Below are positions 1,445-39,275 of a DNA stretch of 64,000 bases, piece after piece. A model generated the notes under the pieces. The model worked only from the letters and a program-made list of their open reading frames with translations. It did not search any database and was not told the origin of the DNA. Each line of letters begins with the position of its first letter. Within the stretch, counting starts at the first letter, position 1. Position numbers and translations under genes: made by a program. This stretch comes from Burkholderiales bacterium (lineage in GTDB: Bacteria > Pseudomonadota > Gammaproteobacteria > Burkholderiales > SG8-41): positions 9,473 to 73,472 of the forward strand of contig JBOIEQ010000001.1 of the NCBI GenBank assembly GCA_050741255.1, given 5' to 3'.

Positions 1445-1578
1445 GCGTTACTCCTCCATCATGGTGCGTCCGTGACCGGCGAAAGTGTAGCGCACCGGCA
1501 CTGGCATGGACCACTGTGAAGGGTGCGCGGGAAGTAAACGCGCGGTCCGGTGCCGGTGTGGTGATCGCATTTCGTTTT

Positions 1579-1588
1579 TGGTATACCA
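1579..1588. promoter_or_regulatory. perfect 10-bp palindrome TGGTATACCA, candidate GntR/FadR-type operator
   Basis: Perfect palindrome with a GT-N-AC core, located in the 176-bp divergent region between the UGSC operon and the hydantoinase operon, 33 nt upstream of ATG 1621. A GntR/FCD regulator is encoded in the same operon. Confidence 0.3.
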
Positions 1589-1620
1589 TGGCATTCCATC
1601 GCATTCATCCGGGATTGACC

Positions 1621-4600
1621 ATGTCCATAGCCATTGGCTGTGACATCGGCGGAACATTCACCGATTTCATCCTCATCGACGAAACCTCCGGCACGGTGCG
1701 TGTGGACAAGGTCCTGACCACCCCGGCGGACCCTTCCCTCGCGATCGAGCAGGGTCTGCGCAACCTGGAGGAGGCGCAGCCGGGATCGATACGCGAAACC
1801 GCGGCCTTGGTGCACGGCACGACGCTGGTGATCAACGCGGTCATCGAGCGCAAAGGCGCGCGCACCGGGCTCATCACCACTCGGGGTTTTCGCGATGTGC
1901 TCGAGATTGGCCGCGAGAAGCGGTACGACGGGAACGACCTCCAGATCCGCTTTCCCGAGCCGCTCGTGCCGCGCTCACTGCGCGTCGAGATCGATGAGCG
2001 CATACACGCTTCGGGCCGGGTGCTGCAGGCACTCGATATCGCCTCCGTCGAGCGCGCGGTGCAGGCCCTGACCGCACAGGGTGTCCAGTCGATCGCCATC
2101 TGCCTGCTGCATTCCTACGCGAATCCGGCGCACGAGGAACAGGCGGCCGGCATCGTCGCGCGCCTGGCGCCCGGAATACCGGTCACGCTTTCGTTCGAAG
2201 TGTTGCGAGAACTCAAGGAATACGAACGCTCCACCACCACCGCCGTCAACGCCTACGCCAAGCCCATCGTATCGCGCTATCTGAAAACACTCGAAGGCCG
2301 GCTGGATACGCTGGCCTTCAAGGGCGAACTGCTGCTGATGCAATCGAGCGGCGGCCTCAACTCCTCGCAGATGGCGCAACGATTCCCGGTGCAGATCATC
2401 GAATCGGGACCTGCCGCGGGCGCCATCAGCGCCGCGCACTACGCGCGGCTCGCCGGCCACGCCAAGATACTGGCCTTCGACATGGGTGGCACGACCGCGA
2501 AGATGTGCCTGGTCAAAGACGGCCGCGTGGTCAAGGTCAATCAACTCGAAGTCGACCGCGTGCAGCGCTTCAAGCGCGGCAGCGGCATCCCGGTGCGCGT
2601 GCCGGTCGTGGACCTGATGGAAATCGGCGCGGGTGGCGGCAGCATCGCCCGCGTCAGTCCCAAAGGCACGCTGGAAGTCGGCCCTGAAAGCGCATCCGCC
2701 GCCCCGGGGCCCGCCTGTTACGGCCTGGGCGGAACGCAACCTACCGTATCCGACGCCGACGTCGTGCTCGGCTACCTGAATCCCGCGTACTTCCTCGGCG
2801 GCCGCATGGCGCTCGACAAGACCAGCGCGCAAGCCGCCATCGAGACGGCGCTGGCGAAACCGCTGGGCCTGAGCGTGGAAGCGGCGGCTTGGGGCGTGCA
2901 CAGCGTCGTGAATGAGAATATGGCCGCCGCCGCAAAAGTCTATGTCGCCGAAAAGGGAGAAAGCCCCAGCAGTTGTGCGGTCGTCGCTTTCGGCGGCGCC
3001 GGTCCCGTGCATGCCTCCGATCTCGCGCGGCGCATCGGCGCACAGGTCGTCGTGATTCCGCCGCGCGCCGGCGTCGCCTCCGCGTTCGGCATGCTGATTG
3101 CGCCCGCCTCGTACGACACCGTCCGCACGCATCGCGTGCGCCTGATGCACGCCGACTTCGGCGCGATCGAATCCCAGTACGCCCAGATGGAACAGGCCGC
3201 GCGCGCCGGCCTGCCGCGCAGCGTGGACAGCGCCGCCGTCTGGTTCGAGCGCTCGGCCGATCTGCGCTATGTGGGACAAGGCTACGATCTCACGGTGACG
3301 CTCGCCGCGGAGCGCCAGACCGAAACCGGCATGCGCGCGGCCTTCAACGCCGCGTACCATCTGCTCTACGGCCGCGTGTTCGACGATCTTGAGCTGGAAC
3401 TCATGAACCTCCGCGTCACCGCGTACGCGCCAGGCAAGCACTTTGAAGAGACCGTGCATGCCGTCCCGGCCGGCAGCGCCGTCGCCTGCACCGAACGCGA
3501 TGCGTATTGCGCGATCTCGCGCCGCTTCATCCCGCACAAGGTGTATGCCCGCGCCAGTCTGCCGAAAGGGGCTGCACTCGATGGACCGGCGATCGTGGAG
3601 GAAGCCGAATCGACGACGATCATCGACCAGGATGCGAGCTTTACGGTCGATGATTTCGGCAGCGTCGTGATCTCGCTACGCACCCGCCTGCCGGTGGCGG
3701 TAACGCGCCGCAAAACCGCAAAGCTCGACCCGGTTGCGCTGGAGATGCTGTGGCGGCGGCTGGGCTCCACGGTTGACGAACTGGCGGCGGCGCTGGTCCG
3801 CACCTCGTTCTCGACGGTGGTGCGCGACGTCAACGACTATGCCTGCGCGATATTCGACCGCCAGGCGCGACTGCTCGCGCAATCCACCGACAGCACGCCG
3901 GGAATCTGCGGCGGCCTGGGACCGATGCTCCGTCACATGCTGGAGGTCTGCCCGCCCGCCAGCCTGCGCGAAGGCGACGTACTGATCGGCAACGACCCCT
4001 GGAACGGCAGCGGCCATCACAACGACATCTTTACCGTCACCCCGGCGTTTCACAAAGGCAAGCTGATCGGCTACGCCGCCTGCGCCGCGCACCATGTGGA
4101 CATCGGCGGACGACGCGCGACCACCGAAAGCCGCGACAACTACGAGGAAGGCCTGCGCATCCCGGTAAGCCGCATCATGCGCAGGGGCGAACCCAACCCC
4201 GATGTGTTCAATTTCATCGCCGCCAATGTACGCCTGCCCGACACCGTCCTGGGTGACCTGCGGGCGCAACTCGCCGCCAACCACGTCGGCTGCGAGCGGA
4301 TGCGGGAATTGTGCGCGGAACAGGGCTGGAAGGACCTGCAACTGCTGGCCGGAGAGATCCTGCAGCGCAGCGAGGAGATCGCGCGTTCGGAAATCAGCCG
4401 GATCCCGGACGGCGTGTTCACCCATGAAGCGCCAATCGATATCGTCGACGGCGAGCGCATCGTGCTGCGTGTGGCGGTGACAGTCGAGGGCGACGGGCTC
4501 ACGGTCGACTTCAGCGGGTCTTCGCCGCAGGTGCGCCCCGCCATCAACTGCACGCTCACCTACACCGCGGCGTACGCCCATTTCGCCGTCGGCGCCCTGC

Positions 4601-5397
4601 TCAACCTGCCGGTCGCGATCAACCAGGGCACGCTGGTGCCGGTCAAGGTCACGGCCCAGGCGGGAACCGTACTGAACGCGTCCTTTCCAGCGCCGGTGTT
4701 CGCGCGCACCAGTATCGGCAATTTCGTGCCGGAACTCATTTTCACCGCGCTGGCGTCGGCCCTGCCGGACCGGGTCGTTGCCGGTTCGGGCGCGACGCCG
4801 TTGTGGGCGCAATACCTATTCGGCAAACGCAAGGACGGCAGCCGTTTTGCACCGCTCAACTCGGCCAATGGCGGCCTCGGCGCACGCGCGAACCAGGACG
4901 GCGTGTCCTGCCTGACGTTCCCGGTCAACATCGGGAACACCCCGGTCGAGGTACTCGAAAGCGACATCCCGGTGCTCGTTCGCCAGCGCGCGCTGTGGCC
5001 CGATTCGGCAGGCGCGGGCCGCTTCCGTGGCGGCCTCGGACAGCATTTCGAGATGCAGGTGCTCGAAGACGACCTCGGGCCCGACGGCCCCCTGCTCGTC
5101 GGTTTTCGCGGCGGACGCTTTTATTTCCCGGTGCATGGGCTGCTCGGGGGCGGCGACGGTCCCAACGGCAAACTGACGATCAACGGCAAACCGGCCACCG
5201 GCGGCGGCGACGTATCGGTCCCGCCCGGCGGCACCATCGTGTGCCGCATTCCCGGTGGCGGCGGCCTGGGCTTGCCCGCGGAGCGCCATCCCGATCTCGT
5301 CCGGCGCGATCTCGAATACGGTTACATCACTCTGGAACACGCACAACAGCATTACCCGCATGCACTGGCGGCAGGACGGACCGCGGCCGCGAAGTAG
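1621..5397 (+). CDS. fused hydantoinase/oxoprolinase (HyuA-like N-half plus HyuB-like C-half; 5-oxoprolinase / N-methylhydantoinase family)
   Basis: 1293-aa ORF. The N-terminus MSIAIGCDIGGTFTDF is the hydantoinase-A signature start. The C-half (DPVALEMLWRRLGSTVDELAAALVRTSFSTVVRDVNDYACAIFD...) is hydantoinase B. It parallels the split pair at 27544..31328. Start chosen at the conserved MSIAIG; ATG 1588 is an alternative. Confidence 0.9.
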   Translation: MSIAIGCDIGGTFTDFILIDETSGTVRVDKVLTTPADPSLAIEQGLRNLEEAQPGSIRETAALVHGTTLVINAVIERKGARTGLITTRGFRDVLEIGREKRYDGNDLQIRFPEPLVPRSLRVEIDERIHASGRVLQALDIASVERAVQALTAQGVQSIAICLLHSYANPAHEEQAAGIVARLAPGIPVTLSFEVLRELKEYERSTTTAVNAYAKPIVSRYLKTLEGRLDTLAFKGELLLMQSSGGLNSSQMAQRFPVQIIESGPAAGAISAAHYARLAGHAKILAFDMGGTTAKMCLVKDGRVVKVNQLEVDRVQRFKRGSGIPVRVPVVDLMEIGAGGGSIARVSPKGTLEVGPESASAAPGPACYGLGGTQPTVSDADVVLGYLNPAYFLGGRMALDKTSAQAAIETALAKPLGLSVEAAAWGVHSVVNENMAAAAKVYVAEKGESPSSCAVVAFGGAGPVHASDLARRIGAQVVVIPPRAGVASAFGMLIAPASYDTVRTHRVRLMHADFGAIESQYAQMEQAARAGLPRSVDSAAVWFERSADLRYVGQGYDLTVTLAAERQTETGMRAAFNAAYHLLYGRVFDDLELELMNLRVTAYAPGKHFEETVHAVPAGSAVACTERDAYCAISRRFIPHKVYARASLPKGAALDGPAIVEEAESTTIIDQDASFTVDDFGSVVISLRTRLPVAVTRRKTAKLDPVALEMLWRRLGSTVDELAAALVRTSFSTVVRDVNDYACAIFDRQARLLAQSTDSTPGICGGLGPMLRHMLEVCPPASLREGDVLIGNDPWNGSGHHNDIFTVTPAFHKGKLIGYAACAAHHVDIGGRRATTESRDNYEEGLRIPVSRIMRRGEPNPDVFNFIAANVRLPDTVLGDLRAQLAANHVGCERMRELCAEQGWKDLQLLAGEILQRSEEIARSEISRIPDGVFTHEAPIDIVDGERIVLRVAVTVEGDGLTVDFSGSSPQVRPAINCTLTYTAAYAHFAVGALLNLPVAINQGTLVPVKVTAQAGTVLNASFPAPVFARTSIGNFVPELIFTALASALPDRVVAGSGATPLWAQYLFGKRKDGSRFAPLNSANGGLGARANQDGVSCLTFPVNIGNTPVEVLESDIPVLVRQRALWPDSAGAGRFRGGLGQHFEMQVLEDDLGPDGPLLVGFRGGRFYFPVHGLLGGGDGPNGKLTINGKPATGGGDVSVPPGGTIVCRIPGGGGLGLPAERHPDLVRRDLEYGYITLEHAQQHYPHALAAGRTAAAK

Positions 5398-31328: not shown

Positions 31329-31653
31329 GAAAACTCTGCGATTTGTGAAAGGTTGGCACTATAGGCAATCGGGCCGCCGGAAACAACGCACCGCGCGGTT
31401 CGGGTCCGGCGCGCCCCGCGCTGGCGCATCGCCGCCCGCGCACGCTCGCAAGCGGTGCGCGGGTTTGTAGGAGAAAAAAACCGCGCTGACCGGCGCACGG
31501 CGCCGGCCACCGCACTAAAATCGGGACTCGCTGAAATCATGCGCCGGTGATCGCGGCTAAAATCCCGGCAGGGTGCGCGTTCGCTGGTTTACCGCGCGCC
31601 TGGCCGCACCCGCGCCCCTTCACCACCATTTTCCTCCGGATAACCCATTCGCA

Positions 31654-32787
31654 ATGATCAACGCCGCCATCGTCGGACTCGGCCGCTGGGGCCAGAACCT
31701 CGTCAACAGCATCCAGGGCAAAAGCGACAAGATCCGCGTCGTGCTGGGCGTCGCCCGCACGCCCGCCAAGACCGAAGCCTACGCCCGAGACAAGGGTTTC
31801 CCTCTCGTGGACAGCCTGGAAAAGGCGCTGGCCGACCCGAACGTGCAGGCCGTCATCCTGGCCACCCCGCACAGCACGCACGCCGCACAGATCGTCGCCG
31901 CGGCGAAGGCCGGCAAACATGTGTTCACGGAAAAACCTTTCACCCTGACCGCGGCGTCCGCTACGGAAGCCGTGGCGGCATGCAAGAAAGCCGGCGTAAC
32001 GCTCGCTGTCGGCTTCAACTGGCGCTTCCAGCCCGCGCTGCAGGCGATGAAACGCATGCTCGATGACGGCACGCTCGGCACGCTGCTGCACGTGGAAGGC
32101 AACTTCAACGGACCGAGCGTCTACCGCGTGCCCAAGGACCACTGGCGGCAGAAACGGGATGAAGGCCCCGCAGGCGGCATGACCGGCCGCGGCGTGCACG
32201 TGGTCGACGCCTTCCAGTATCTCGCCGGGCCGGTCGCCACGGTGCACGCGCAGAGTTTTCGCCGCGCGCTGGATTACGGCACGGACGACACGACCTCGAT
32301 GCTGCTGCGCTTCGAGAGCGGCGCCACCGGCTACCTCAGCACGGTGATCGCCACCGCCGAAACCTGGCGCATGCAGATCCTCGGCACCAAGGGCTGGGCC
32401 GCCGTCGGCGATGTCGAACACCTGACGACCTGGCAACTGCAGGTATGCACCTACGACCCGGCGCATCCCTACGTGCACGTGAAACCGCAGACGGTGACCT
32501 TCCCGGACACCAGCACCGAGCGCGCGGAACTGGAGCACTTCGCCGACGCCGTCGCGGCGCGCAAGCCGCTCGCGGTGCCTGGCGGCGACGAAATCCACGG
32601 CGTGGCGATCCTCGAGGCCGTTCTGGCGTCGGCGAAGGCTGGCGCCACGGTGAAAGTCGGCGCAGGCGCACCCGCACGAACCAACACCGCGCACACTACC
32701 CGCCTTGCGGGCAGCGTGCGCGCAGCCGCGCCGAAACGGAAGATGCCTGCCAAAAAGACCGCCAAACGCCCCGTCAGTAAAAAGTAA
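31654..32787 (+). CDS. Gfo/Idh/MocA-family oxidoreductase with a basic Lys/Ala/Pro-rich C-terminal tail
   Basis: MINAAIVGLGRWGQ Rossmann start and ATPHSTHAAQIVAAAKAGKHVFTEKP. About 40 extra C-terminal residues ...AAAPKRKMPAKKTAKRPVSKK. Confidence 0.85.
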   Translation: MINAAIVGLGRWGQNLVNSIQGKSDKIRVVLGVARTPAKTEAYARDKGFPLVDSLEKALADPNVQAVILATPHSTHAAQIVAAAKAGKHVFTEKPFTLTAASATEAVAACKKAGVTLAVGFNWRFQPALQAMKRMLDDGTLGTLLHVEGNFNGPSVYRVPKDHWRQKRDEGPAGGMTGRGVHVVDAFQYLAGPVATVHAQSFRRALDYGTDDTTSMLLRFESGATGYLSTVIATAETWRMQILGTKGWAAVGDVEHLTTWQLQVCTYDPAHPYVHVKPQTVTFPDTSTERAELEHFADAVAARKPLAVPGGDEIHGVAILEAVLASAKAGATVKVGAGAPARTNTAHTTRLAGSVRAAAPKRKMPAKKTAKRPVSKK

Positions 32788-32799
32788 CCGGGAGACCCC

Positions 32800-33765
32800 A
32801 TGTCCCTGCTTCGACTCGCCACCGCCGTTCTCGCCTGCGCCGCCAGCACGACCGCCGCGGCCCAAAGCTACCCCGCCAAACCGGTCCGCATGATCGTCCC
32901 CTTCCCCGCGGGCGGCGCCACCGACATCATCGGCCGCATCGCGGCGCAGAAACTCGCCGAGGCGATGGGCCAGCAATTCGTGGTGGACAACCGGGGCGGC
33001 GCCGGCGGAACCATCGGCACCGAGATCGCGGCCAGGGCGGTGCCTGACGGCTACGTCCTCATCACCGGCACCAGCAGCACGCACTCGATTGCGCCGGGCC
33101 TGTATCCCAAGCTCCCGTACGACCCGGTGAAGGACTTCGCGCCCATTTCGCTGTTGTGCACGGCGACCATCCTGCTCGCGGCGCATCCGTCGGTACCCGC
33201 GAAGAACGTCCGGGAACTGATCGCGTTGGCCAAGGCGCGCCCGGACCAGCTCTCCTTCGCCTCCACCGGCAACGGCGGCATTTCGCATCTCGTGGGCGAA
33301 CAGTTCAAATCCATGACCGGCGTGCAGCTCGTGCACGTGCCCTACAAGGGCGACGCGCCCGCGCTGATCGACCTCGCCGCCGGGCAGGTGTCGATCATGT
33401 TCGGCACCGCGGTCGCCTTCATCCCCTACGTGAAGTCCGGCAAGCTGAAGGCGCTGGCGGTAACCAATCCCGAGCGCTCCCCCATCGTGCCGGACGTGCC
33501 CACCGTCAGCGAATCCGGTCTGAAGGGCTTCGAGGCGGTGCAGTGGTTCGGCCTCTTCGCGCCGGCCGGTACGCCGAAGGACATCGTCACGCGCCTGCAT
33601 GCCGAGACGGTGAAATTCCTGCGTCAGCCGGACGTGCGTGAAAAGATGACCGGGCTCGGCACCGATATTGTCGGCAACACTCCGGAGGCCTTCGCGGCAT
33701 TCCAGAAGGCGGAGATCGCCAAGTGGGCGAAAATCATCCAGCAATCGGGCGCACGGATCGAATAA
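32800..33765 (+). CDS. Bug-family substrate-binding protein
   Basis: MSLLRLATAVLACAASTTAAAQSYPAKPVRMIVPFPAGGATD. GGGAG SD upstream. Confidence 0.9.
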   Translation: MSLLRLATAVLACAASTTAAAQSYPAKPVRMIVPFPAGGATDIIGRIAAQKLAEAMGQQFVVDNRGGAGGTIGTEIAARAVPDGYVLITGTSSTHSIAPGLYPKLPYDPVKDFAPISLLCTATILLAAHPSVPAKNVRELIALAKARPDQLSFASTGNGGISHLVGEQFKSMTGVQLVHVPYKGDAPALIDLAAGQVSIMFGTAVAFIPYVKSGKLKALAVTNPERSPIVPDVPTVSESGLKGFEAVQWFGLFAPAGTPKDIVTRLHAETVKFLRQPDVREKMTGLGTDIVGNTPEAFAAFQKAEIAKWAKIIQQSGARIE

Positions 33766-33791
33766 AGAACACTGAACACGGAACACGCAAC

Positions 33792-34142
33792 ATGAACGCG
33801 GAAAAAGCATCACCCCGCCCCAAGCCCGCTGCGTCGAAACGCGCACGCGCAACCCCGCAACCGACCGAGAGCCGTTTTCTCGCGCAGTGGCAAAACGAGA
33901 AAAAGACGGTGGAGATCTACCTGATCAACGGCGTCCGGATCGAGGGACGGATCGTGTCCTTCGACCCGCAGGTCGTGCTGGTCGAGAGCGGGACCACCGA
34001 CAAGGTCTACAAGACCGCCATCTCGACCATCCAGGAAGCAAAAAAACGCACTGCCCCCCGTGTCGCCAAGCCGGCGGCAGGCGCGCCTGCGCGCACACCG
34101 ACCGTTGTCGTCAAGCGGGTCCGGCGCGCCCCGCCGCGGTAA
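33792..34142 (+). CDS. Hfq-like (Sm-fold) RNA-binding protein paralogue with basic N- and C-terminal extensions
   Basis: Core FLAQWQNEKKTVEIYLINGVRIEGRIVSFDPQVVLVESGTTDKVYKTAISTI aligns with E. coli Hfq [52 protein letters not shown] (Sm1 and Sm2 motifs; His57 replaced by Thr). 27 nt downstream of the Bug gene. Confidence 0.75.
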   Translation: MNAEKASPRPKPAASKRARATPQPTESRFLAQWQNEKKTVEIYLINGVRIEGRIVSFDPQVVLVESGTTDKVYKTAISTIQEAKKRTAPRVAKPAAGAPARTPTVVVKRVRRAPPR

Positions 34143-34179: not shown

Positions 34180-35652
34180 TTACTTCTTGCCCGGCGCCAA
34201 CTGCTCCCGCGCCTTTTTCTGCGCGACCTGCGCGTCCAGCAACAGCCGATACGAGACGTAGTATTTGTAGATGTTGCGCACGTAGGTCGTGGTCTCGATG
34301 CCGACCTTCTCGGCGGTGACGATCTCGACGTTGTTGAACCACTTGTCCGGATCCAGGCCGCGCTTCGCGGCTTCCTTGCGCATCTGGGAAATGCGCCCCG
34401 GCCCGGCGTTGTAGGACGCGAAGGCGAACAGCGAGCGGTTCGCCTCGCTGAATTTCGCGTCGGGAAAGTACCGGGTCATGAGCTGGTCCATGTACTTCGT
34501 GCCGGCGTGGATATTCGACTCCGTCGTCTTGATGTCGCCGACCTTAAGCTCCGCGCCGGTCGCGGGCATGACCTGCATGACGCCGATCGCGCCCACGTGA
34601 CTCTTGGCGTTCTGGTCGAGCCCCGACTCCTGGAAGCCCTGCGCGGCCAGCATCAGCGGATCGAAGTTGTACTTGGCGCCATACTTCTCGAACAGTCCCA
34701 GCGTGTCCTGGAAGCGCTTCGCGTCGGCAGAACCGGTCGGGTCCTTCATCTGCTTCACGCGCTTGTGGTATTGCGCGAACCGGCTGGCGATGAGGTTCTG
34801 CTTCTTCACGAACTCGGTGTAGAAATCCTGCACCGCCGCTTCGAGCTTGACGCTGCCCTTGCGCATCGCCCAGCCCGTGTTTCCGCCCGCGCGCACGACG
34901 GCGCCCTCGTTGACCTTGATCCCGGGCAGCACCTGCGCCCACATTTTGGCCTTCCAGTCGTCGACGACGATGGTCTCCAGCAGCCCGGCATTCAGCATCT
35001 CCATCATGTCCTCGTCCTCGAGCGCATCGGGCACCAGGACAATCCTGATCTCCGGCTTGCCGGCCTTCTTGAGCCGCGCGCTCAGCGCGACGACGCTGTC
35101 GTGGTAGCTGGACGACTTGCGCACGTGGACGGTCTTGCCGGCCAGGTCGTCCACGGTGTTGATCGCCGGGGACTTGGGGCCCGTCACCACAACTTCGGCC
35201 ATGTCGCGCTGGTTCGGCGCCACCCAGAAGTCCACCAGCTTCCTGCGTTCCTCGGTGACCGTGAGGTTGCCGGCGGCGAGGTCGCCCCTGCCTTCGGCGA
35301 CGTTCTTCAGCAATTGGTCGCGCGTGGTGGGAATGATGTAGATGGTGATCGGCCGCTTGCCCAGTTCCTTGGCGTACTTCTTGTTGAGATAGCGCTCGAA
35401 GTCGCGTACGAAATCGGCGGTGATGCCGCGCTCGCGCCCCTTTTCGGTGAAGTACAGCGAGCGGCTGTAGGGCACCAGCACCCGGATCATCCGGCGCTTG
35501 AGCATGCCGTCGAAATCGCCCTTCCACTCTCCGGCGGTGGTTGGGAGCGCGCGCACTTTCCGGCCCTCGTCGGGTTTCTCCGCCCCGAAGGCGTGGCTTG
35601 CGGCACACAGCAGCATGACGGCGGCGACAATGCGGGCAGACAGTGTGAGCAT
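34180..35652 (-). CDS. MltF-like lytic transglycosylase (periplasmic solute-binding domain plus SLT domain)
   Basis: Signal peptide, SBP_bac_3-like N-half (RVLVPYSRSLYF...), and SLT catalytic region QESGLDQNAKSHVGAIGVMQVMPATG. Confidence 0.85.
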   Translation of the reverse strand: MLTLSARIVAAVMLLCAASHAFGAEKPDEGRKVRALPTTAGEWKGDFDGMLKRRMIRVLVPYSRSLYFTEKGRERGITADFVRDFERYLNKKYAKELGKRPITIYIIPTTRDQLLKNVAEGRGDLAAGNLTVTEERRKLVDFWVAPNQRDMAEVVVTGPKSPAINTVDDLAGKTVHVRKSSSYHDSVVALSARLKKAGKPEIRIVLVPDALEDEDMMEMLNAGLLETIVVDDWKAKMWAQVLPGIKVNEGAVVRAGGNTGWAMRKGSVKLEAAVQDFYTEFVKKQNLIASRFAQYHKRVKQMKDPTGSADAKRFQDTLGLFEKYGAKYNFDPLMLAAQGFQESGLDQNAKSHVGAIGVMQVMPATGAELKVGDIKTTESNIHAGTKYMDQLMTRYFPDAKFSEANRSLFAFASYNAGPGRISQMRKEAAKRGLDPDKWFNNVEIVTAEKVGIETTTYVRNIYKYYVSYRLLLDAQVAQKKAREQLAPGKK

Positions 35653-38331: not shown

Positions 38332-38406
38332 GGGCGGTTAACTCAGCGGTAGAGTGCCACCTTCACACGGTGGAAGCCACTGGTTCGATCCCAGTACCGC
38401 CCACCA
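38332..38406 (+). tRNA. tRNA-Val (anticodon CAC)
   Basis: GGGCGGTTAACTCAGCGGTAGAGTGCCACCTTCACACGGTGGAAGCCACTGGTTCGATCCCAGTACCGCCCACCA. Full cloverleaf checked by hand. Confidence 0.9.
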
Positions 38407-38438
38407 TCCCCTCCACGCCCCTCGCGGCCAGTGGCGCC

Positions 38439-39275
38439 ATGGCTGAAGAATACGAATACGTCCCGCTGATCGCGCCACCGGCCGCCGTCGATGAACCCTG
38501 CCTGTGGTTCGCCTTCAAGGGCGCGGAACTGCTGATCGAAACGGGCGAGGACGGCCCCGGCATCCTGCAGTGCCGGTCGCTCGAAGAATTTGCGCTGAAG
38601 CCGGTCCGCACGCAGTACCTGGGAACACTCGGCGGTCGCCATTGCTACGCAACGGAACTGCCGGAGGACGCAAGCGCACCCGAGGGCCGCACCTTTTCCG
38701 GCCTTCGCCCCCTGTTCGGGACATTGGACGACACCTTGGTGGCGCTTGCCGGACGCGCCTTCCAGATCAAGGAATGGGACCGCAACCACCAGTTCTGCGG
38801 CCGCTGCGGCACGCCGACCGAGCAGCGGATGGACGAACGCTCACGCGCCTGCCCCGCCTGCCGCCACCGCAGCTATCCGCCGGTATCGCCCGCGGTGATG
38901 ATGCTGATCACCGATGGTCAGCGCCTTCTGCTGGCGCGCAAACCGGAATGGCCGGATCATCGCTACAGCGCGCTCGCCGGCTTCGTCGAGCCCGGCGAAT
39001 CGCTGGAAGACACCGTGCGGCGCGAGGCCATGGAGGAAGTCGGCGTGAAAGTGGGCGCGCTGCGCTATTTCGGCAGTCAGCCGTGGCCCTTCCCGCATTC
39101 GCTGATGGTGGCCTTTGTCGGCGAATACGCCGGTGGCGAGATCACGCCGGATGGCGTGGAAATCGCGGAGGCCCGGTGGTTCGAACCGGACGAGTTGCCG
39201 CGGCTGCCGCCGAGCATCTCGATTTCCCGCAAGCTGATCGATGCGACGGCGCGGGAGCTGCTGGCGGGACGGTAA
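38439..39275 (+). CDS. nudC: NAD(+) diphosphatase (NADH pyrophosphatase)
   Basis: Zn ribbon CGRCGTPT...CPAC and Nudix box GFVEPGESLEDTVRREAMEEVGV followed by SQPWPFPHSLM. The track start 38370 overlaps the tRNA and is rejected. Confidence 0.85.
   Translation: MAEEYEYVPLIAPPAAVDEPCLWFAFKGAELLIETGEDGPGILQCRSLEEFALKPVRTQYLGTLGGRHCYATELPEDASAPEGRTFSGLRPLFGTLDDTLVALAGRAFQIKEWDRNHQFCGRCGTPTEQRMDERSRACPACRHRSYPPVSPAVMMLITDGQRLLLARKPEWPDHRYSALAGFVEPGESLEDTVRREAMEEVGVKVGALRYFGSQPWPFPHSLMVAFVGEYAGGEITPDGVEIAEARWFEPDELPRLPPSISISRKLIDATARELLAGR

Follow-up and report, generated by a model that had tools for sequence, protein, structure and literature searches.

The hfq-like gene considered here lies on the forward strand of a 64,000-nucleotide stretch of DNA from a Burkholderiales bacterium (contig JBOIEQ010000001.1, positions 9,473 to 73,472), which is called the window throughout. 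It is the last of three genes in an apparent operon, following a gene for a Gfo/Idh/MocA oxidoreductase and a gene for a Bug/TctC periplasmic solute receptor. The operon diverges from DAO - hyuB - hyuA on the minus strand (26.2-31.3 kb); the hfq-like gene is followed by a convergent MltF-like gene and, beyond it, by NhaA and DAO. The window belongs to the core chromosome and contains gltX, tig-clpP-clpX-lon, tRNAs and ppiD. Sequence profiles and predicted structures indicate that the hfq-like gene encodes a genuine but divergent Hfq/Sm-fold protein, which is not a standard Hfq. The features of the locus are collected in Table 1.

Table 1. Coordinates of the hfq-like gene, its parts and its neighbours in the window (aa, amino acids; nt, nucleotides; ORF, open reading frame; pLDDT, predicted local distance difference test)
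Feature	Position	Strand	Description or basis
Divergent intergenic region hyuA (-)/Gfo (+)	31329..31653	.	Gene layout; presumed site of operon promoter
Gfo/Idh/MocA oxidoreductase gene, 377 aa	31654..32787	+	PF01408, PF22725, PF02894; first gene of apparent operon
Bug/TctC periplasmic solute receptor gene	32800..33765	+	PF03401, E 1.2e-79; subclade A loci only
Spacer, Bug stop to hfq-like ATG	33766..33791	+	26 nt, A-rich, unstructured
hfq-like coding sequence	33792..34142	+	116 aa and stop codon; ORF, Pfam, fold prediction, selection across six loci
N-terminal basic arm, aa 1-26	33792..33869	+	Predicted disordered, pLDDT about 50; net charge +4; KRARA cluster
Sm/Hfq core, aa 27-82	33870..34037	+	alpha1 and five beta strands; net charge 0; residue comparison with E. 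coli Hfq
Variable Ala/Pro/Lys/Arg-rich linker, aa 83-100	34038..34091	+	Length and sequence vary among homologues; pLDDT about 50
Conserved C-terminal motif, aa 101-116	34092..34139	+	R-T-P-T-V-V-V-K-R-V-R-R-A-P-P-R; pLDDT about 65, above linker
Convergent MltF-like gene (SBP_bac_3 + SLT)	34180..35652	-	Ends 37 nt past hfq-like stop; 3' operon boundary

The ORF is intact from an ATG at 33792 to a stop codon at 34140-34142. An alternative GTG start at 33723 was also contained in the ORF list and would overlap the end of the upstream gene. All homologues have a Met at the place of the window ATG, within the pattern M-N/D/S/T-x-E/T; since they all begin at this position, 33792 is regarded as the start of the gene.

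The Hfq Sm core recognised in the original prediction was confirmed by several methods, at a level well beyond chance. The match to the Pfam Hfq family PF17209 covers residues 28-85 with 56.2 bits against a cut-off of 27 (E 2.6e-15). A phmmer search of the PDB matched 35 Hfq chains at E 1e-6 to 8e-11, the best of which was 3inz, P. aeruginosa Hfq H57T (E 7.9e-11). AlphaFold2 monomer predictions were made twice, with alignments of 24 and 72 sequences. The predicted core consists of helix alpha1 (25-35) and strands 39-44, 49-57, 61-66, 68-73 and 77-82 at a pLDDT of 87-93, and residues 1-24 and 83-116 appear as low-confidence coil at a pLDDT of about 50-65. The top 50 Foldseek matches were all Hfq, with template modelling (TM) scores up to 0.95; for E. 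coli Hfq, the target-normalised TM score was 0.92 and the root-mean-square deviation 1.1 A over 62 columns. Core identity to canonical proteobacterial Hfq (E. coli, P. aeruginosa, Herbaspirillum) is 37-43%, and the NCBIfam equivalog cut-offs were missed (TIGR02383, 56.0 against 61.7; NF001602, 52.5 against 95). A tandem Hfq of the Sphingomonadales type (PF17209 + PF21979) was also considered and was rejected, as the protein contains a single Sm domain and reaches only 20.5 bits with PF21979, below the cut-off of 27.

The window protein was aligned with E. coli Hfq and 140 other Hfq-like sequences, and core residues are given below in E. coli numbering. The Sm1 motif VEIYLINGVRIEGRIVSFD and the Sm2 motif YKTAISTI, with Thr in place of His57, are both present as first predicted; the change is not merely His to Thr, however, and extends to more of the pocket residues. 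In canonical Hfq, the proximal U-pocket consists of Gln8, Phe42, Lys56 and His57, the last of which reads the free 3'-OH of small RNA (sRNA) U-tails, and the lateral pocket consists of Asn13, Arg16, Arg17, Ser38 and Phe39 (PMC5379935). In the window protein the proximal pocket is E, Q, K and T (Q8E, F42Q, H57T), with Lys56 the only one of the four residues kept and Q41P a further change on the same side. The lateral pocket is A, Q, N, S and F, in which Ser38 and Phe39 (two of five) are kept. The rim shows R16Q, R17N, R19K and K47E, with R16 and R17 gone in all members of the family of close homologues described below, and the distal face shows Q33E and Q52D, both acidic. The distal A-R-N site, which is presumably formed by Tyr25, Gly29, Ile30, Lys31, Gln33, Gln52 and Thr61 as in the E. 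coli poly(A) complex (PDB 3gib), keeps Y25 (Y/F), G29, K31R and T61 across the family; position 30 varies among V, T, S and A, and Q33E and Q52D are changed.

The part of the core that is retained comprises Y25, N28, G29, K31(R), F39, D40, Y55, K56 and A58-T61, including the beta4/beta5 interface motif (Y55, K56, A-I-S-T). The replacements are invariant in the family except for Q/H at 42 and E/Q at 47, and no member keeps more than one of the four proximal residues. This invariance of the replacement residues implies a selected state and not decay. Because proximal, rim and distal residues are replaced in every family member, the standard role of an sRNA 3'-end chaperone is doubtful for this protein.

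The family itself is small. A word-indexed search of 5.8 billion proteins found nine clusters at the 90% level, with 59-100% identity, all from metagenomes or metagenome-assembled genomes (MAGs); where names were present on these clusters, they were 'host factor-I' or 'RNA chaperone Hfq'. An exhaustive HMMER search of 1.84 billion 50% representatives gave nothing below E 1e-30 other than the cluster of the query itself, and the next match was 47% identical (E 6.5e-18). Three of the clusters (P0002, P0008, P0009) all come from one Sphagnum peat-moss metagenome (PMC9584203). The family is monophyletic with a neighbour-joining bootstrap of 94% and consists of two subclades, A (with the window) and B, supported at 97% and 98%. 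No member was found in 72,556 plasmids, 50,697 phage records or IMG/VR, and PADLOC gave no matches; with no plasmid, phage or viral relatives, an origin from a mobile element was rejected. A metagenome scan with the pattern YK[THR]A[IV]STI, which was too general, returned distant Hfq types only and no new family members. So far, the family is known from a few uncultured Burkholderiales-like bacteria.

A search of reference genomes for close relatives gave a single match, of 84% identity, on contig CAZXNF010000047.1 (locus L004). The MAG containing this contig is labelled 'uncultured Streptomycetaceae bacterium'; the 3' end of its upstream gene is near-identical to the Bug 3' ends of two family loci (L005, L007), and the ORF layout downstream of its hfq-like gene resembles that of L007. 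The contig is probably misbinned in a Streptomycetaceae MAG.

Selection was assessed by Nei-Gojobori estimates of nonsynonymous (dN) and synonymous (dS) divergence over six loci, using pairs with dS of 0.2-2. The dN/dS of the core was about 0.03-0.25 and the dN of the last 16 codons 0.04-0.28, and the N-terminal arm and linker evolve faster. The low values for the core and for the C-terminal motif suggest that the gene is functional and that its C-terminal end is constrained. The loss of canonical binding residues, together with a GC content at third codon positions (GC3) of 0.79 against 0.85-0.91 in neighbouring genes, might be read as the mark of a decaying or neutral gene copy without function. 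Such a relic is very improbable, since the ORF is intact in all loci, the core is constrained even at dS values reaching about 2, the residues that took the place of the canonical ones are invariant and the C-terminal motif is conserved.

Positive charge in this protein is located almost entirely in the arms. The N-terminal arm was expected to be a Pro/Lys/Arg-rich extension of 26 residues and was found to be one (residues 1-26, with 6 K/R and 5 P). Its basic cluster is conserved in character, as KRARA in subclade A and RKPRRGKR in subclade B, and its dN is high. The C-terminal tail is basic, as had been stated, with 11 K/R, 8 Ala, 6 Pro, 1 Gly, no D/E and a net charge of +11; its length is 34 residues (83-116) and not 35, however, and it is more than a basic tail, as it ends in a conserved motif common to remote Hfq lineages. 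The arms together carry +15 per subunit; the isoelectric point (pI) of the core is 6.2 compared with 9.4 for the E. coli core, and that of the whole protein is 11.2. The C-terminal end R-x-P-T-V-V-V-K-R-V-R-R-A-P-x-R is almost identical in all family members, and a related motif, P-T-[IV]-V-V-[KR]-x-[KR]-R-R, ends many remote Hfq-like proteins and was present in 34 of 162 sequences of a first sample. Over 72 sequences of the basic-armed kind described next, P103 and R112 are conserved in at least 90%.

The nearest relatives of the family are 42-47% identical (P0317, P0017, P0011, P0299 and others) and belong to a group that is called 'basic-armed' here; it was defined in this analysis and is no previously described family. 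The group is characterised by a basic N-terminal arm, an A-x-x-R-F-L helix start, acidic residues at 33 and 52 (E33/D52), S-T-I-Q after beta5, a variable linker and a C-terminal P-T-[IV]-V-V-[KR]-x-x-R-R, all of which are found in the window protein. The relatives also resemble it in the form of this end (P-T-I-V-V-R-x-K-R-R), in the rim arginines being largely absent and in their non-hflX loci. Unlike the window family, they keep Q8, H57 and an aromatic residue or His at 42, and they occupy other gene contexts. A hidden Markov model (HMM) of the basic-armed group, trained with the window family excluded, scored the family cores at 87-93 bits, compared with 48-57 on an HMM of canonical proteobacterial Hfq; the window protein core scored 87 against 54. 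A tree nests the family among the basic-armed relatives, with 14% bootstrap on 60 columns. The nearest relatives appear to be basic-armed Hfq-like proteins and not Burkholderia Hfq2, with weak support from the tree. A literature search found no description of basic-armed Hfq proteins or of their C-terminal motif. The finding points to a larger unstudied set of such proteins in uncultured soil and peat bacteria, whose present annotation is just 'RNA chaperone Hfq'.

An hflX neighbour was found beside none of the relatives examined. At the locus of P0317, a divergent RdgC gene is followed by hfq-like - DUF1993 - thioredoxin - Hsp20 - Lon, and a TctC gene is close by. The cluster of RdgC, hfq-like, DUF1993, thioredoxin, Hsp20 and Lon genes is conserved in the closest outgroup clade (L106 9002-14591, and also L107, L108, L011 and L013-L015), which suggests a stress-related role for that basic-armed branch. 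Another relative, P0010, lies upstream of a phosphoenolpyruvate (PEP) carboxylase gene.

A second lineage with T57 was also observed (P0016, at L012 6001-6483, and also P0065 and P0126). Like the window protein, it contains FDPQ and YKT (P41, Q42, T57). Q8 is retained, the Arg/Gly/Pro linker is long, and the C-terminal sequence is PRVPVVRYKRRLPDR; the gene is flanked by Hpt and His_Phos_1 genes, with EAL response regulators nearby. Both a sister relationship to the window family and convergence are compatible with the 60-column tree. In addition, a very uniform type of long Hfq with R57 was seen in L018-L043, L048, L054, L064 and L067, several of these contigs being from soil or peat; the related C-terminal motif takes the form PVVVTRRRRL here. 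It contains REPREP-like repeats and a PVVVTRRRR(L/P)F motif followed by a Gly/Asn/His-rich acidic end, and it is probably acidobacterial. The presence of PVVVTRRRR in this type indicates that the basic VVV-RRRR element is widespread outside Proteobacteria.

The gene context was predicted to be other than miaA-hfq-hflX, and this agrees with the neighbours found in the window (Gfo/Idh/MocA, Bug, MltF-like, NhaA and DAO) and likewise in related loci. The Bug gene adjoins the hfq-like gene as described (PF03401), though with a spacer of 26 nt where 27 nt had been given, and the end of the Gfo gene is separated from the Bug gene by 12 nt. With these short spacers and with no promoter-like or plus-strand terminator-like site between the three genes, the Gfo/Idh/MocA - Bug - hfq-like operon holds as an apparent one; the lack of such sites makes co-transcription likely. 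The operon promoter is presumed to lie in the hyuA-Gfo intergenic region, although no sigma-70 consensus match was found in 31329..31653; scans for promoters and terminators remained at background level. A terminator-like hairpin, GCCGTGCGCCGGTCAGCGCGGT followed by TTTTTTT, is located in this region on the minus strand (31470-31501), about 150 nt upstream of the hyuA start, where a small minus-strand transcript could terminate or a leader could be attenuated; terminator-like sites are about as numerous in the region as in shuffled sequence.

In every family locus with upstream DNA, down to 59% protein identity, one and the same Gfo orthologue lies 5' of the hfq-like gene and shares its strand. 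In subclade A, Bug lies between the two genes, ending 9-26 nt before the hfq-like start (window/L001, L005, L007); it directly precedes the hfq-like gene in L002 and L003, and a Bug 3' end precedes it in L004. In subclade B (L006, L009) there is no Bug gene, and Gfo is directly upstream with a spacer of 54-61 nt. The MltF-like neighbour is present also in L001, L002 and L005. This strict order in both subclades, together with the absence of any transcription-factor gene in window 26-38 kb, could point to a dedicated post-transcriptional regulator of its own or the divergent hydantoinase operon, one that would bind A-rich or structured leaders of neighbouring mRNAs and would not be global. The sequences just upstream of the gene offer further hints of this kind. 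The window spacer reads AGAACAC-TGAACAC-GGAACAC-GCAAC, with three GAACAC repeats at 7-nt spacing; its fold energy is -1.5 kcal/mol (z -0.3), and the Shine-Dalgarno match before the ATG is weak. In subclade B, a GC-rich hairpin without a U-run was observed between the Gfo stop and the hfq-like start (L006 3472-3515, L009 993-1033), with -29.8 kcal/mol and z -3.0 in L009 and z -0.9 in L006. This hairpin could serve in processing, in stabilisation or in attenuation, and the window has none.

Neither the repeats nor the hairpin, however, are conserved between the subclades. The spacers of L005, L007 and L004 are 9-14 nt long, with AGGA and with GAACAC at most once. The leader upstream of hyuA is not conserved in L006, the hyuA-Gfo region showing no visible conservation between subclades. 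At the gathering score, Rfam recognised only tRNAs, and a permissive search of 31.2-34.4 kb gave one chance-level match, so that Rfam yielded no associated RNA element. Moreover, orthologous operons function without the hfq-like gene. A role confined to these operons is therefore improbable.

Comparison of Gfo loci shows how the gene may have come to its position. The Gfo orthogroup has more than 5,500 matches, and its nearest named members, at 65-73% identity, are from MAGs of Betaproteobacteria/Burkholderiales. The hfq-like gene is missing from three orthologous Gfo loci, including one in which DAO-hyuB-hyuA / Gfo are arranged as in the window. Thus, the hfq-like gene was apparently added 3' of Gfo in one sublineage, and the Gfo enzyme is independent of it.

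The Gfo protein of the window ends in a Lys/Ala/Pro-rich tail of about 40 residues (aa 337-377, nt 32662-32784), for example KPAAKKKAPARKPAQKARVKRAARKK. Histone-H1-like tails rich in Ala, Pro and Lys are common in Betaproteobacteria. A basic tail on the probably co-transcribed enzyme, a net +15 per subunit with Ala/Pro/Lys-rich tails on the hfq-like protein, the loss of the RNA-specific pocket including the 3'-OH-reading His57, and a crystal structure of E. coli Hfq with double-stranded DNA (5uk7, among the Foldseek matches) could all suggest a mainly DNA- or polyanion-binding architectural protein, such as a nucleoid-associated protein or a condensate or granule scaffold built on an Sm ring, in which RNA chaperoning would be secondary or absent. 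The two tails are not coupled, however. Most Gfo orthologues (336 aa) have no tail, and several lineages (362-412 aa) have one, including loci without the hfq-like gene; besides the window, it was found in L005, L006, L007, L009, P0259, P0260, P0242 and P0278. Coupling of the Gfo tail to the hfq-like gene was rejected on this ground, and the tail appears from these sequences to be an independent, recurrent feature. The conserved, sequence-specific C-terminal motif and the retained Y25 also argue for more than bulk charge, and basic disordered tails are just as typical of RNA chaperones. An architectural role in DNA binding is thus a minority possibility, although it is the strongest of the alternatives.

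The locus gives indirect indications of whether the protein stands beside a canonical Hfq or replaces it. No miaA, hflX or second hfq (by tblastn for the last) was found within the 64-kb window, and Y25, G29, K56 and the Sm2 backbone are kept. The protein could then be the sole, primary Hfq of the organism, acting as a normal sRNA-mRNA matchmaker with basic arms that replace the arginine rim. The Acidobacteria-type Hfq, which appears to be the ordinary Hfq of its soil and peat hosts, has a similar PVVVTRRRR motif, and thus the motif alone is no mark of a paralogue. On the other side, Q8, F42 and H57 are all replaced, the scores are under the NCBIfam equivalog cut-offs, the locus is not miaA/hflX, and the orthologous locus of related Burkholderiales MAGs lacks the gene. 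The extreme rarity of the family in both protein searches (nine 90% clusters and one 50% cluster) is also difficult to reconcile with a primary Hfq. To our knowledge, canonical Hfq is universal across Burkholderiales. Within Burkholderia it is highly conserved, at more than 96% (PMC7074383). A primary Hfq at this locus is accordingly quite unlikely, at about the same level as the operon-specific regulator. A second hfq copy is indirectly favoured by the locus itself and by the fact that orthologous loci lack the gene, as well as by the positions of all related basic-armed genes away from hflX and by the distance of the protein from the highly conserved betaproteobacterial Hfq. Judged from such comparisons, the hfq-like gene is likely a paralogue beside canonical hfq.

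The combination of features differs from that of known Hfq systems. Canonical proteobacterial Hfq (PF17209/TIGR02383) shares with the window protein the Sm fold and the residues Y25, N28, G29, F39, D40, Y55, K56 and A-I-S-T, but has a basic core and a short or acidic C-terminal domain in place of a neutral core with basic N- and C-terminal arms, and its gene is located at miaA/hflX(-hflK-hflC). Hfq2 of Burkholderia (the BCAL1538 type of B. cenocepacia) is comparable as a second, divergent Hfq of a betaproteobacterium that carries a long extension. It has 175-216 aa, a well-conserved structured N-terminal region and a Gly-rich, mucin-like repetitive C-terminal domain, and clusters near gammaproteobacterial Hfq; for its extension, too, disorder and the binding of several ligands have been proposed (PMC7074383). 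The window protein, of 116 aa with Lys/Arg/Pro/Ala arms at both ends and degenerate pockets, is set apart by this published description, and the contrast with Hfq2 drawn in the original prediction is supported. The laboratory point mutant of canonical P. aeruginosa Hfq in 3inz has the same His to Thr change at 57 in Sm2, whereas T57 of the window protein is natural, family-invariant and accompanied by Q8E, Q41P and F42Q. The protein is therefore neither Hfq2 nor tandem Sphingomonadales Hfq, nor is it an Hfq from a plasmid or phage. Additional copies of Hfq are nothing unusual; what seems new, on the sequence comparisons, is the loss of pockets combined with arms that bear a conserved cationic C-terminal motif.

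A charged, disordered C-terminal end is also known in Hfq of E. coli and Caulobacter, where it acts on the Hfq ring in autoinhibition; there, an acidic tip meets a basic rim, and the window protein shows the reverse, a basic tip with acidic or neutral ring faces. In published work, the C-terminal domain was shown to limit non-specific RNA annealing (PMC6561178).

The explanation preferred here, with moderate confidence, is that the protein is an accessory, non-canonical Sm-ring nucleic-acid binder that uses cationic arms in place of the canonical pockets. It would assemble as a ring with about 12 cationic arms, at roughly +90 per hexamer. Such a predicted ring is plausible because the interface motif is kept and because 3inz, an engineered H57T Hfq, was deposited with six chains. 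RNA, and possibly DNA, would be bound mainly through the arms, perhaps aided by the retained distal aromatic Y25, and the U-rich 3' ends of terminator-ended sRNAs would not be captured in the proximal pore. In the absence of nucleic acid, the acidic ring faces may serve as a docking site for the basic C-terminal motif, so that the acidic-tip/basic-rim autoinhibition of enterobacterial Hfq would recur with its charges reversed. The explanation is supported by a co-occurrence: among 186 single-domain Hfq-like sequences, residues at both 33 and 52 are acidic in 65 of the 86 with a basic C-terminal motif and in 3 of the 100 without it, a count that is not corrected for shared ancestry. The protein would be made together with the Gfo/Idh/MocA and Bug proteins, under the conditions that induce them, and a canonical hfq would most probably be located elsewhere in the same cell. 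The docking of the C-terminal motif is speculative, and much less certain than the general picture of an accessory binder.

Several points weigh against this explanation. The change to T57 might weaken the ring, and work by Moskaleva and colleagues in 2010 reportedly found that His57 is important for the organisation of the Hfq hexamer. The retained Y25, G29, K31(R) and K56 make some canonical binding of A-rich or U-rich sequences possible. No canonical hfq is present in the 64 kb of the window, which leaves the accessory status an inference, and the operon link may be just the landing site of the hfq-like gene. As regards docking, the monomer predictions with both alignments gave no secondary structure for the C-terminal motif, at a pLDDT of about 65, and did not fold it on the core.

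Hfq is the RNA matchmaker of bacterial textbooks, with three RNA-binding surfaces that are regarded as nearly universal. In this family, selection has kept the ring yet replaced most of the residues that define these surfaces, and has moved positive charge to disordered arms with a conserved motif at the end. If the accessory-binder explanation is true, the family represents a natural experiment on which parts of Hfq serve what, and raises the questions of whether the ring can form without His57, whether cationic arms can take the place of the arginine rim in RNA annealing, and whether tail-to-ring autoinhibition can work with charges reversed. Q8, F42, H57 and the rim arginines are lost throughout the family and the cationic C-terminal motif is conserved, which makes for a clean, testable case of structure and function. 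The practical stake is modest, as additional copies of Hfq have been described before and the hfq-like gene has no phenotype assigned to it.

A bolder reading is that the Sm ring no longer reads RNA by its proximal, rim and distal pockets and has become a hexameric hub from which twelve cationic arms extend, with the C-terminal motif resting on the acidified faces until nucleic acid displaces it. This is unlikely, somewhat more so than the architectural DNA-binding role. If it were true, the basic-armed Hfq proteins, which are widespread among uncultured Betaproteobacteria and whose C-terminal motif is found in Acidobacteria as well, would form a functional class of their own among bacterial Sm proteins, and the window family would be its most extreme member because recognition of sRNA 3' ends would have been lost altogether.

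Some observations were made elsewhere in the window. An ORF of 1293 aa at 1516-5397 on the plus strand is a fusion of caprolactamase/hydantoinase alpha (residues 40-720) and beta (737-1284) subunits, an A-B fusion unlike the hyuA and hyuB genes at 27.5-31.3 kb, which are split. A tRNA-Val(CAC) gene at 38332-38406 overlaps the 5' end of the called NUDIX/NudC ORF (38370-39275), and thus the true start of this gene must lie further downstream.

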